Assembly (NCBI GenBank): GCA_965116925.1
Contig: OZ220744.1
Location: 640,001-704,000 of the forward strand
Length of the DNA: 64,000 nucleotides
Direction of reading: 5' to 3'
DNA from: Candidatus Poribacteria bacterium
GTDB taxonomy: Bacteria; Poribacteria; WGA-4E; PCPOR2b
Shown here piece by piece: positions 1,880-63,644 of this stretch (its first letter is position 1; each line of letters begins with the position of its first letter). Position numbers and translations under genes: made by a program. The notes below the pieces were generated by a model. The model was not told where the DNA came from and did not search any database. It saw only the letters and a program-made list of their open reading frames with translations.

Positions 1880-3907
1880 GTGAAAACAAATCAACAACCC
1901 AAAAACTCTGCCAATCACGTTTCACGTTTCACGTTTCACGTTTCACAGCCTGTCCCGATTTATCGGGGCATCACGCATCACGCATCACGTTTCACGTTTC
2001 ACGTCATCTTGCTCATTGCGCTGCTTGTCGGCGGGGGCATTGGATGTTCAAGAGATCAAGCCCCCAAGCCCGGTCGCTGGGAAATCGTTCGGCGTGCAGA
2101 TTGGGAAGCACGATTCTACGATGTCTTCTTCATTGACGAGCACACCGGGTGGATAGTCGGCAATAACGCAGGAAGCACATTCGCGGAGGAACTCGACAGT
2201 GTGATTGCCCACACAACGGACGGCGGAGTGACATGGCATCCACAACAGAGCGGCGTTTACCATCCGTTGCGAAGAGTGCAATTTGTAGACCACCAAACCG
2301 GTTGGTGCGTCGGCGAAAATGGTGTCATCCTGCACACAACAGATGGTGGGGAAACGTGGGAAAAGCAGTTAGGAGCCACATATAATAACCTGTTCGATCT
2401 CCACTTCGTCTCAGCCCATGAGGGGTGGATCGTCGGCGATTTTGGGACGGTGCTATACACGCAGGATGGCGGACAGCATTGGATAGACCGATCAGAAGGG
2501 GTGGGCGACAACTCACTACGGGGTCTGTTTTTTCTCAATGCCCGTCAAGGTTGGACTGTCAGCCACCAGGGCAACGCCTACTATACACGCGATGGCGGAA
2601 AGCACTGGACGTACCAGAGAACAAATGTCCGCTACGAGTTGTCCGATGTCCACTTTGTTGATGAAAATCGTGGCTGGATCGTCGGTGACAGAAGGATAGT
2701 GCTTACCACACAGGATGGCGGCAGGAATTGGGAGTATCTAACGCGCGGTTCAAATAAACGTCATGAAGAACAGTATGGTCAGCAGCTAAGAACCGGAGAT
2801 GAGCCGCTACACACCTTCCTCCTATACGCACTCCATTTCCCCGATGCTCAGAACGGCTGGATCGTTGGCGACTTGGGTGCCATCTTGCACACCAACGATG
2901 GCGGGAGGACATGGAAGCATCAGCGTGGTGGGGCGACCCAACTGGTCGGAGCGGATGTCGTTCTACTCGGTGTCCATTTTGTCAATCCTCGGCTCGGTTG
3001 GACTGTCGGGGAGTTCGGAACTATCTGGCATACCAAGAACGGTGGAAGGACGTGGGAACTTCAATCCGCACCCAGCTATCTGCTCACAGACCTTCATTTC
3101 ATCAGCGATAAAGTTGGATATGCGGTGGGCGATCGCGGTGAGGTCCTCCGCACAGATGATGGTGGATTGCACTGGCAGTCGCAAGATAGCGGAACGATGG
3201 AATGTTTCGGATCAACACATTTTATCAGCAACAAGGTTGGGTGGAGCGTTGCGGAATGGGGAACGATTGTTCACACCACCGATGGTGGCAAAACGTGGTT
3301 ACAGCAGGAGGCGAATACGGAAAATGACCTGCTCGGTGTCTCCTTCGTTGATTCACAGCACGGATGGGCAATCGGCCACAGTGGGGAGATTTTGCACACC
3401 GCAGATAGCGGTAAAACGTGGACGAAACAGCGCAGCGGCGTCAACCGTCATCTCTTTGGTGTTCACTTCATTGACACTCAAACCGGATGGGTTGTAGGGC
3501 AGGGCGGCGTGATCTTACACACACGGAACGGCGGCAAAAAGTGGGAGGTACAAACCCAACTCGGAGAGGTATGGCTGTCAGGGGTTTTCTTTACAGACCA
3601 TCTAAACGGGTGGGTCGTTGGGATTGATGGGTTGGTTATCCACACAACCGATGGGGGACGCACATGGAAACGTCAAAAGAGCTACGTGGACAGTTTCCTT
3701 AATAGTGTCTTCTTTCTCAACCCGAACCTCGGTTGGGCAGTCGGCGGTGAAGGCACAGTTATCCGTACCCTTGATGGTGGCGAGAACTGGCGGCCCCAAA
3801 GGTGCGAAAGCCACTATAATCTGAACTCAATTTATATGACGGACGCTGAAAATGGTTGGATTGTCGGTGATCTTGGGGTCATGTTGAGATATGTGGTTGA
3901 TGATTAG
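1880..3907 (+). CDS. YCF48/BNR(Asp-box)-repeat beta-propeller lipoprotein
   Basis: Many 'F.D...GW.VG..G.ILHT.DGG.TW' repeats; hydrophobic stretch ending GIGC; SD AAAGGA before the GTG. Confidence 0.85.
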   Translation: MKTNQQPKNSANHVSRFTFHVSQPVPIYRGITHHASRFTFHVILLIALLVGGGIGCSRDQAPKPGRWEIVRRADWEARFYDVFFIDEHTGWIVGNNAGSTFAEELDSVIAHTTDGGVTWHPQQSGVYHPLRRVQFVDHQTGWCVGENGVILHTTDGGETWEKQLGATYNNLFDLHFVSAHEGWIVGDFGTVLYTQDGGQHWIDRSEGVGDNSLRGLFFLNARQGWTVSHQGNAYYTRDGGKHWTYQRTNVRYELSDVHFVDENRGWIVGDRRIVLTTQDGGRNWEYLTRGSNKRHEEQYGQQLRTGDEPLHTFLLYALHFPDAQNGWIVGDLGAILHTNDGGRTWKHQRGGATQLVGADVVLLGVHFVNPRLGWTVGEFGTIWHTKNGGRTWELQSAPSYLLTDLHFISDKVGYAVGDRGEVLRTDDGGLHWQSQDSGTMECFGSTHFISNKVGWSVAEWGTIVHTTDGGKTWLQQEANTENDLLGVSFVDSQHGWAIGHSGEILHTADSGKTWTKQRSGVNRHLFGVHFIDTQTGWVVGQGGVILHTRNGGKKWEVQTQLGEVWLSGVFFTDHLNGWVVGIDGLVIHTTDGGRTWKRQKSYVDSFLNSVFFLNPNLGWAVGGEGTVIRTLDGGENWRPQRCESHYNLNSIYMTDAENGWIVGDLGVMLRYVVDD

Positions 3908-4047
3908 GCAGTGCGTAGGTTAGGTTGAGCGGGAATCGTGAAACCCAACACCCAATTCTGTAGGAGGGAATTCCGATTCCCGACTATTACTAATTTGGTT
4001 CATTGGTTCACTAGTTCATTAATGAACCAATGAACTCTTGAACGTTA

Positions 4048-46589: not shown

Positions 46590-46704
46590 ATGAAGATTAA
46601 TTTATTAATTGGGTAATTTCCGAGCGATGTCCGGTGCGGTTTGCAACCGCACCTACCGGGTCTGGGGAAATATAGAATTACCCGTTTAATTTCTTAAAAC
46701 CCAT
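46590..46704. mobile_element. MITE family A (115 bp, ATGAAG..TTAA / TTAA..CAT ends, internal GTAG REP) inserted in a CGCTCCAGAGGAGCG palindrome
   Basis: Host halves CGCTCCAG (46582-46589) and GAGGAGCG (46705-46712); intact host at 46532-46546. Confidence 0.8.
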
Positions 46705-58456: not shown

Positions 58457-58573
58457 ATGAAGATTAAAAAAACAGTTCGGTAATTGGCTAGCGACACCGG
58501 CGCGGTTTGAAACCGCGCCTACCGTGTGTTTCGAGGAAAATAGGGATTACCGATTTAAATACTTAAACTTCAT
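58457..58573. mobile_element. MITE family A copy (117 bp) inserted in the loop of the REP of a family B MITE
   Basis: ATGAAGATTAA...TTAAACTTCAT ends; host halves GTAGGTTCGGTTT and CCAACCGCGCC. Confidence 0.8.
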
Positions 58574-61070: not shown

Positions 61071-61147
61071 TGATCATTGAGGAAATAGAACCGGAAATAA
61101 TTCCAGTTCGTATCTATCATAGAGAAACCGAATTTTCCCCAGCCCCG

Positions 61148-61171
61148 GTAGGTGCGGTTTCCAACCGCACC
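61148..61171 (+). repeat. GTAG-type REP upstream of RAYT
   Basis: GTA-GGTGCGGTT-TCC-AACCGCACC; relatives at 46633-46656, 58499-58522 and in the downstream array. Confidence 0.85.
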
Positions 61172-61211
61172 GAATTCAGTCCAACCCGATAAATAGGGAG
61201 GACAACCAAAC

Positions 61212-61685
61212 ATGAACACCGCTCCCAAACATCGAAGCCACAACCTCCGCAAAGGCAGAGCTTCCATACAAGGCACATATTACCACATCATCATCTGTAC
61301 ACACCAGCGACAGAAAATGCTAATGGACCCCACAATTGCATCAATTATCTTCAAAACATTCGATTGGCTCGAAACAGAGAACCGCCAAGAATGGGTATGT
61401 ATCTTGGTGATGCCGGATCATGTACACACGATTATTAAACTTGAACAAGGGCAGACCCTAGGACAAGTTTTGCATTCGATGAAACGCTTTACCGCCCGTG
61501 AGATTAACAAACATCTATCCCGGACGGGCTCCGTCTGGCAGCAAGGTTATAGCGATTGGGGCATTCGGGACGAGACGGTCTTAAACAAAACAATCCGCTA
61601 TTGTTATGTGAACCCTGTGAGAGCGGGTATAGTAGGGTCAGCTCGAGATTATCCGTATTGGCGGTGCAAGTTCCAGATGGAATAA
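61212..61685 (+). CDS. REP-associated tyrosine transposase (RAYT, HUH Y1 family)
   Basis: LRKGR.S, MPDHVH (HUH), VWQQGY.D, Y...NP.RAG.V....DYP.W; SD GGAGG; flanked by inverted GTAG REPs. Confidence 0.9.
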   Translation: MNTAPKHRSHNLRKGRASIQGTYYHIIICTHQRQKMLMDPTIASIIFKTFDWLETENRQEWVCILVMPDHVHTIIKLEQGQTLGQVLHSMKRFTAREINKHLSRTGSVWQQGYSDWGIRDETVLNKTIRYCYVNPVRAGIVGSARDYPYWRCKFQME

Positions 61686-62085
61686 TCGCTGTAGTATCGG
61701 TTGAAACGGCGCAGTTGAAAACAGCGCCTACCAGACAGGAGAACGGTACGGGCGGTTACAAACCGCACGGTGCAAGTTCCAGATGGAATAATCGCTGTAG
61801 TATCGGTTGAAACGGCGCAGTTGAAAACAGCGCCTACCAGACAGGAGAACGGTATGGGCGGTTACAAACCGCACGGTGCAAATTCCAGATGGAATAGTCG
61901 CCGTAATGTCAGTTGAACCGGCGCACTTGGAAACAGCGTCTACCAGACAGGAGAACGGTACGGGCGGTTACAAACCGCACGGTGCAAATTCCAGATGGAA
62001 TAATCGCTGTAGTATCGGTTGAAACGGCGCAGTTGAAAACAGCGCCTACCAGACGGGAGAACGGTACGGACGGTTACAAACCGCA
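61662..62085. repeat. Tandem array, 106-bp unit x 4, each with the RAYT 3' end and two opposed REPs
   Basis: Units start at 61662, 61768, 61874 and 61980. Confidence 0.93.
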
Positions 62086-62177
62086 CTAGGCATCGCTCGG
62101 AAATTACCGAATTAATAAATTAAACTTCATACAAAAACTCGGTTAATCGTTGAGACAATCTTCGTATCGGAGGACAC

Positions 62178-63644
62178 ATGCAACCCAATATTCTTATCTT
62201 TATGACCGATCAAGAACAAGCCGATGTGGTGCATCCAGACCATCCATGTATCACACCAAATGCTACGAGGTTAGCGCAGGAGGGGGTTCTTTTTAACCGT
62301 TCATTCTGTCCAACGGCACATTGCTGCCCCTCACGCGCAACATTTATGACAGGCGTATATCCCAGTCGGCACGGCATCTACAACAATGTCAGCAATCCGA
62401 CCGCCATCCACCACGAACTCTACGAAGGTGTCGGGATGTTCAGTGAGACACTCCGATCTTCGGGCTACAATTTGGCGTATGCCGGGAAATGGCATGTCAC
62501 CGACGCCGAGAACCCATCCGACCGCGGTTGGGAGGATCTGCACCTGACGGGGGGCAAAGGCAGCTACATGCACCGTTCAGTGGCGCAATGGCAAGAACAA
62601 GCCAAACAACCCGAATCGACAGAACGCCAGCGTGGGCAAATTCTCCGTCCCGGTTGGGGACACTACCAGTTGTATCAATCCTACCCGACCGACACACCGA
62701 AAGGCTACGAAGATCACCGAGATTATCGCGTTGTCCAATCTGGGATAGAGGCGTTGGGGCGACTGTCCCAAGCCGATGCGCCGTGGTGCCTATACATCGG
62801 ACCGAGCGGGCCCCACGACCCATTCATCGTGCCGGAGCGTTTCGCCCAAATGTATGACCCCAAAGAAATTCCGCTGCCCCCAAACTACCACGACACATTG
62901 GAAGACAAACCCCGCGCCTATCAGCGAGCGCGTCAGCAGTATTGGGATCAACTTTCGGAGGACGAAGTGCGCGAGTCCCTCCAGCACTATTGGGGATACT
63001 GCACAATGGAGGACGCGATGTTCGGTGAGGTGCTTGAGACACTGGAGGAGACAGGGCAGGCGGATAACACCCTTGTGCTACGAATGAGCGACCACGGCGA
63101 TTACTGCGGTGCACACGGCTTGTACCTCAAAGGGGTGCCGGCGTTCCGTGAGGCTTATAACATCGCCACAATTGCCCGTTGGCCCCAAGGGATCGCCAAT
63201 CCCAACCGCGAAGTCGATGACTTTGTCAGCCTCGCCGATTTCGCACCCACCTTCATCGAATTAGGGGGCGAATCCGTACCAGATGACCTGACAGGGAGGA
63301 GCCTCGTGCCATTCCTGAAAGACGAAACCCCCTCCGATTGGACGGACGCATTCTACACGCAATTCAACGGCGTTGAGCTGTATTACAGCCAGCGCGTTGT
63401 CACTACCAAAGAGTTCAAATACGTCTACAACGGCTTCGACTTCGACGAGGTATACGATCTGCGGAACGACCCGCACGAAATGGTGAACCTCAGCGACCAC
63501 CCCGATTATCAGGAGGTGAAGCGCGATTTGGTGCGTCGGATGTGGCGGTTCGCAGGACGCGAGGACGACATCATCTTCAACCCGTATGCAACGGTGGCAT
63601 TTGCGCCGTGGGGCCCCGCCGATGCCCTGCGCGATGAAGCGTAA
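62178..63644 (+). CDS. Sulfatase (formylglycine-dependent)
   Basis: PNILIFMTDQ, C.PSRA..MTG, GKWH, PH.P, SDHG, YDL..DP.E..N. Confidence 0.93.
   Translation: MQPNILIFMTDQEQADVVHPDHPCITPNATRLAQEGVLFNRSFCPTAHCCPSRATFMTGVYPSRHGIYNNVSNPTAIHHELYEGVGMFSETLRSSGYNLAYAGKWHVTDAENPSDRGWEDLHLTGGKGSYMHRSVAQWQEQAKQPESTERQRGQILRPGWGHYQLYQSYPTDTPKGYEDHRDYRVVQSGIEALGRLSQADAPWCLYIGPSGPHDPFIVPERFAQMYDPKEIPLPPNYHDTLEDKPRAYQRARQQYWDQLSEDEVRESLQHYWGYCTMEDAMFGEVLETLEETGQADNTLVLRMSDHGDYCGAHGLYLKGVPAFREAYNIATIARWPQGIANPNREVDDFVSLADFAPTFIELGGESVPDDLTGRSLVPFLKDETPSDWTDAFYTQFNGVELYYSQRVVTTKEFKYVYNGFDFDEVYDLRNDPHEMVNLSDHPDYQEVKRDLVRRMWRFAGREDDIIFNPYATVAFAPWGPADALRDEA

Follow-up and report, generated by a model that had tools for sequence, protein, structure and literature searches.

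The accessible portions of 10.1101/2021.07.10.451892 and PMC3333891 give as the standing view that RAYT genes are not self-moving and that RAYT spreads REPs. In the window analysed here, a stretch of 64,000 nucleotides from a Candidatus Poribacteria bacterium (assembly GCA_965116925.1, contig OZ220744.1, positions 640,001 to 704,000), a RAYT gene lies between a TonB receptor gene and a sulfatase gene, with REP units on both sides, part of a MITE on its right and the two halves of a hairpin around the whole. How did the gene come to this site, and which enzyme moves the MITE? The preliminary description of the locus took RAYT and a dispersed MITE (MITE-A) for a candidate autonomous and non-autonomous pair, and offered two options: that MITE-A is a REP-to-REP deletion derivative of a mobile RAYT element, or that it is a landing site which captured RAYT.

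Organisation of the locus

The features concerned are as follows, in window coordinates.

46590..46704, - strand: MITE-A, 115 bp, one GTAG REP enclosed by IS630-type ends
58457..58573, - strand: MITE-B, 117 bp, a sister family with like ends (C1:698573-698457), inserted in a REP loop
58791..61070, + strand: TonB-dependent receptor-like gene, left neighbour, with Plug and CarboxypepD_reg domains; syntenic in congeners
61123..61136, + strand: target hairpin, left arm; its terminal T-run is fused to the REP 5' extension
61134..61194, + strand: left REP unit, consisting of 5' extension, GTAG REP (61147-61171) and 3' spacer
61212..61685, + strand: RAYT (TnpA-REP) gene, 157 aa, NF047646 above cut-off, PF01797
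61662..62085, + strand: array of four tandem 106-bp units downstream of the RAYT gene
62063..62086, + strand: last forward REP, its 5' half degenerate, with GTAG lost as in the array; the MITE arm directly adjoins
62087..62130, + strand: A/C-type MITE, right arm, with a 28-bp IS630 right inverted repeat at its end (62103-62130)
62131..62144, + strand: target hairpin, right half, its first base the central one of the loop; the junction is a genuine IS630-type insertion
62178..63644, + strand: sulfatase gene, right neighbour, PF00884; syntenic in congeners

The ORF at 61212-61685 scored 121.5 bits with NF047646 (cut-off 80) while the IS200 model remained below its cut-off, which bears out its earlier identification as a RAYT. 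Its HUH motif (H70, H72) and Y130-x3-N134-P135 are intact and were invariant in 14/14 aligned homologues, and the Y-x3-NP signature is that of class 2 as defined in the available text of 10.1101/279083. GTAG REPs were observed on both sides of the gene in inverted orientation, one forward on the left and four reverse on the right, and the cognate GTAG REP pattern has 366 matches in this genome (G000). The left GTAG REP forms a 9-bp stem with a 3-nt loop (hairpin z = -5.85). Every array unit repeats the final 24 nt of the RAYT gene and adds two REPs, a reverse one with GTAG and a forward one without it; the GTAG is lost in the right forward REP and in its three tandem sister copies. In a distant relative (L172, G136), too, the 3' end of the RAYT gene forms part of tandem repeats.

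The flanks of the gene match MITE-A, as the preliminary description had noted. From 61134 the left flank matches at 36/39 (35/38 had been given), yet this match is not specific to MITE-A, since the array of a sister RAYT locus (C1:329440-329500) matches 61134-61194 better, at 56/61. The right flank matches at 60/69, including the 54/60 already given for 62071-62130, and ends at CTTCAT; its last 28 nt (62103-62130) match the end of an IS630-family element at 27/28. Five of the 44 positions of the right arm differ from the nearest MITE copies, so the arm is older than the MITE-A burst. The last forward REP is likely the crossover point into the MITE. The bracketing half-palindromes are also real: the right half is identical at 14/14 positions to the empty alleles of congeners G006 and G014, and 61121-61136 is identical at 15/16 positions to the intact hairpins in the alleles of G006, G014, G004 and G015. 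The outer left MITE end had been reported as missing or degenerate, and at the left junction the hairpin loop bases and the entire MITE left terminal repeat are indeed absent. Both junctions are crossed with 0 differences by contigs of public runs (left X1 and X17, right X15 and X16), one of which may be the source of the assembly; an assembly artefact at the left junction is ruled out by the X1 and X17 contigs.

The IS630-type ends and their hairpin targets

A scan of the genome (6.47 Mb in one contig, C1) confirmed that MITE-A is dispersed, with 79 full-length matches, 21 of them at 94.8% identity or more. The window copy occupies the loop of a further hairpin, where one base has been duplicated. 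The genome also carries an IS630-family element of 1,241 bp in two copies that are 98.6% alike. Its 384-aa transposase scored 161.1 bits with NF033545 (cut-off 100) and has HTH and DDE_3 domains; D191 and D273 are invariant and E334 nearly so among 15 sequences. The right end of MITE-A matches the right inverted repeat of this element at 27/28 and the IS ends in 8 congener loci at 28/28; its left end diverges more from the IS630 end. The catalytic domain of the transposase (gene at L001:483-1634) exceeds the Pfam model by about 27 aa, with 165 residues spanning 138 model positions, and the insertion falls at about residues 283-317, between the second Asp and the Glu, with an invariant Pro, Trp and Lys. 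It is a candidate for the hairpin-reading part of the enzyme.

Scanning the genome for IS630-type ends gave 243 ends, made up of 111 pairs and 21 unpaired ends, and none at the same threshold in a reversed-genome control. The 103 insertions left after removal of 8 off-register pairs were at a hairpin centre in 97 cases (at least 6 of 8 pairs; random sites 0.48%). One base was duplicated at 81 of the 103 (permutation mean 28, maximum 41) and none at 22. The empty target hairpins mostly have 3-nt loops, and insertion is on the middle loop base. A consensus sequence was rejected as the target rule in favour of hairpin symmetry: stem scores averaged 6.06/8 across 16 distinct target families, against 2.40 when permuted (5,000 permutations, maximum 4.38). 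Autonomous homologues showed the same behaviour. The best 80 named relatives of the element were all from Poribacteria; these 80 loci came from 18 assemblies (40 from one), and after removal of 4 that were too short and 7 that were mis-registered, the remaining 69 gave 55 distinct flank pairs, of which 50 were hairpin-centred and 42 had one duplicated base. A TA target was seen in 0/103 MITE insertions and 0/55 insertions of autonomous elements. The element is thus a non-canonical IS630-like variant, recognised by the IS630 transposase model and lacking the TA duplication. Among the insertions that lack a duplicated base, some show self-complementary junctions (4/55 in the autonomous set); recombination between copies or repair of hairpins may have produced these.

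The MITEs nest, since they contain the target of their own insertion. One copy of the IS630 element lies inside MITE-B, which lies inside MITE-A (G000:C1:4122104-4123578, L001), and the second copy (G000:C1:1430374-1431719) is also within a MITE-B REP; these nested units span 1,346-1,475 bp. Because its ends match and the target signature is common to the MITEs and the autonomous homologues, MITE-A is a passenger of the IS630 variant. At the level of sequence comparison, MITE-A, MITE-B and MITE-C are shown to be non-autonomous passengers of an IS630-family DDE element, each with a GTAG REP as filler.

The association of REPs with MITEs extends through the genome. Cognate REPs lie within paired MITE ends in 282/366 cases (83 ATG-type and 227 TA-type, overlapping), where TA-type pairing allowed 6 mismatches in 26, so that false pairs are possible among the 227. 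The TA-type MITEs are an unrelated 108-bp family with about 277 end pairs and the same REPs (for example C1:2997797-2997904), and they form chimeras with ATG-type MITEs, the exchange of arms at REPs being common: 7 of the 21 unpaired ATG-type ends face a TA-type MITE end 60-200 nt inward, and in the chimeras inspected the switch point is at or beside the REP. RAYT-free clusters of at least three REPs had one-sided ends in 2/4 cases and two-sided ends in 2/4, four clusters being too few to tell models apart; with most REPs located in MITEs, a share of one-sided MITE ends beside REP clusters is to be expected anyway. These DDE-type MITEs may serve as landing pads for RAYT.

Arrival of the RAYT gene at the site

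The junction of TonB receptor and sulfatase genes is conserved across the genus, and RAYT was absent from all 17 same-genus alleles readable end to end. The empty alleles that the preliminary description had suggested looking for thus exist. Two further congeners stand outside this count, one in which the contig ends at the locus and one read only partly, whose genome has its sole RAYT match elsewhere. An intact hairpin of the bracketing family is kept in 5 of the 17 RAYT-free congeners, among them G006 and G014, which have the hairpin whose loop is split by the right junction of the window. RAYT at this site is a lineage-specific arrival. The right junction is a true IS630-type insertion, because the 14 nt after the MITE end match the G006 and G014 hairpin from the central loop base. 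Neither a MITE-only nor a fully framed allele was found among the congener alleles and the public-run joints listed, and the joints listed for the four public runs, whose contigs drop rare variants, also held no empty allele. Many empty alleles have a short ORF fragment 3' of the hairpin (L053, L040, L036), missing in the window (62131-62150), apparently by deletion between two CGGTT motifs. This fragment bears a possible resemblance to a HicB antitoxin.

RAYT itself is neither single-copy nor syntenic in this group. The genome has two full copies and one fragment at three sites, and 33 RAYT loci fall into 18 gene neighbourhoods over several genera by rough flank clustering; this set comprises the best-scoring loci (64-100% aa identity) and compares species, not strains. 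The closest full copy in the genome is the sister locus at C1:328915, at 91.9% nucleotide identity. The window RAYT groups with this copy and its G005 orthologue (support 95/90, about 92-93% nucleotide identity) in a tree on 471 nt that does not order the three members, and it is about 92-94% identical to all close copies. Amino acid identity is out of step with taxonomy, being 81-83% to loci in another family and 50-55% to some loci of the same genus. Position instability aside, the gene is typical of the RAYT family.

No inward-facing ATG-type or TA-type end pair surrounds RAYT at any of 32 other genome loci or at 4 metagenome loci. The latter are the closest of 11 loci (43-73% identical) found in a metagenome search with a RAYT alignment; with a single RAYT sequence as the query, the search gave no matches. 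Among the close RAYT loci in the genus, 5/8 have a one-sided MITE end and 0/8 a matched pair. At L008 (G009), the REP arrays that flank RAYT on either side contain MITE-A-like right halves in threefold repetition, which is a separate instance of a REPtron taking up MITE arms. The window also holds, at 3780-4041, an intergenic region that is the empty site for a distant RAYT of G011 (51% aa, different REP family; L023). The third RAYT of the genome (G000:C1:6326608-6326842, L003) is truncated to its first 49 codons and follows one REP and a degenerate ATG-type left end. The 11 congeners read at that junction had neither this fragment nor a clean empty hairpin. The window RAYT and this fragment were considered as sister copies of one cassette and rejected as such, with 0 shared private substitutions in 147 nt.

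Two unrelated systems, RAYT/REP and IS630/MITE, overlap at this locus. We consider it probable that the hairpin already held a REP-carrying MITE, into which a copy of the RAYT cassette of the sister locus recombined, so that of the two options first offered the landing site is the one that we favour. The exactness of the right junction indicates that an older A/C-type MITE was once inserted in the TonB receptor-sulfatase hairpin, and this insertion would have come first. A copy of the cassette from the C1:328915 sister lineage would then have joined the resident MITE at its REP. Either a REP-bearing circle integrated and the left end was lost later by deletion at the T-run, or the left arm was replaced on arrival. 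The fourfold amplification of the gene-end and REP doublet, which is visible in the array, would have followed. The REP junction could have been made by single-strand cutting and joining by RAYT or by host recombination; our leaning is towards RAYT, given a shared homology of no more than about 25-40 nt. In vitro, E. coli TnpA-REP cuts single strands close to GTAG REPs and joins them again, as reported in the accessible parts of PMC3479197 and PMC3333891, and by analogy such an activity would suit joints with so little homology. The REP 5' extension is also found beside RAYT, without any unpaired terminal repeat, at four other loci (L005, L007, L028, L029). The missing left end of the window unit is a point against a landing in the MITE.

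RAYT might instead have been caught between IS630-type ends elsewhere and moved by the transposase as a unit of about 1 kb into the hairpin, with the left end deleted later. The exact right junction and the hairpin halves on both sides would be expected of such cargo, and its size is compatible, since the unit does not reach the 1,241 bp of the IS and the genome has nested units of still greater length. A degenerate left end opens the fragment at C1:6326693, a feature that fits cargo and landing alike. We nevertheless regard transport as cargo as unlikely, given that none of the 32 other genome loci and 4 metagenome loci is enclosed by an end pair, that the fragment and the window gene have no private substitution in common and that the genome holds no near-identical RAYT copies. 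It is less likely still that homologous recombination in the flanking genes imported the whole allele, ready-assembled, from some relative as yet unsampled. The poor fit of RAYT similarity to taxonomy and the nucleotide identity of 92-94% to all close copies speak for it, but no relative searched has RAYT at this junction, the tree places the window RAYT with a copy from its own genome, and import would shift the question to the donor.

The original proposal of a self-mobile RAYT element, from which MITE-A arose by REP-to-REP deletion and was then moved by RAYT, now appears very improbable. Formally, excision of the stretch that separates the two direct REPs would leave a sequence like MITE-A, and RAYT does occur at many different loci in the phylum. 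However, the MITE ends and target signature are those of the IS630 element, and it was just such a match to the terminal inverted repeats of a DDE transposase in the same genome that the preliminary description had named as the result to speak against its pairing. The HUH enzymes of IS200/IS605 type, in the portion of 10.1101/279083 available, use subterminal hairpins and not terminal inverted repeats; the same REP family also occurs within the unrelated TA-type MITE; and the RAYT flanks diverge more than the MITE-A copies do among themselves.

Comparison with known systems and meaning

The locus resembles the REPtron of E. coli (RAYT yafM, PDB 4ER8; class 2 of Quentin) in its HUH and Y-x3-NP motifs, in the GTAG REPs on both sides and in inverted REP doublets amplified in tandem, as described in the accessible text of PMC3333891 and 10.1101/279083. 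It differs in position. The E. coli TnpA-REP gene is single-copy at one locus and, in the words of PMC3333891, 'does not appear to transpose as a unit', whereas here there are 33 loci in 18 neighbourhoods, three of the sites being in one genome. RAYTs at novel sites in three Pseudomonas strains are already noted in the available portion of PMC3686654, while PMC5581495 and 10.1101/2021.07.10.451892, as far as their accessible text goes, describe RAYTs as single-copy with mostly vertical inheritance. Our comparison is between species and does not contradict stability within species. REPINs, the non-autonomous partners of RAYTs, are likewise about 100 bp, REP-containing and extragenic (accessible part of 10.1101/2021.07.10.451892). 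A REPIN is made of two inverted REPs without DDE-type ends; MITE-A has one REP within terminal repeats of DDE (IS630) type, with near-identical copies as expected of a MITE burst.

The IS630-type element also has partial precedents. IS630 elements with MITEs, such as RUP with IS630-Spn1 and Correia-type repeats, share HTH and DDE_3 domains and the match of MITE ends to IS ends; these MITEs target TA, according to the available portion of PMC2229807, whereas here insertion is at the centre of a 3-nt loop with a one-base duplication. The longer catalytic domain and the MITEs containing their own target are further differences from the IS630 family. IS1272 also takes a palindrome as its target but, in the accessible text of PMC5678879, replaces part of the repeat and makes no duplication. 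REPs of Pseudomonas, Neisseria and Sinorhizobium are known IS targets (PMC3733652, accessible part).

A literature search, outside which lay ISfinder and the subscription reviews, returned no description of a hairpin-loop-targeting IS630 or of these Poribacteria repeats, and no report of a RAYT gene landed in a REP- or hairpin-targeting IS. The IS families known for targeting REPs are IS3, IS4, IS110 and IS1182, and IS630 is not known as one of them.

An IS630 variant that reads hairpin shape rather than TA is unusual in itself. At this locus a filled site can be compared with its empty alleles, and the lineage is one with frequent turnover of RAYT neighbourhoods and with most cognate REPs in DDE MITEs. 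Two questions thereby become testable, namely which enzyme disperses the REPs and by which route a RAYT gene reaches a new site. Tentatively, and with some doubt on our part, REP-RAYT in Poribacteria might be a two-enzyme relay and no fixed domesticated locus, in which DDE transposases scatter REPs in MITE shells and RAYT, by way of these REPs, exchanges MITE arms and reinserts its own gene; at its strongest, this relay would have the RAYT gene travel between IS630 ends as well. If the relay is true, this is a lineage in which the relocation of RAYT can be watched and tested.
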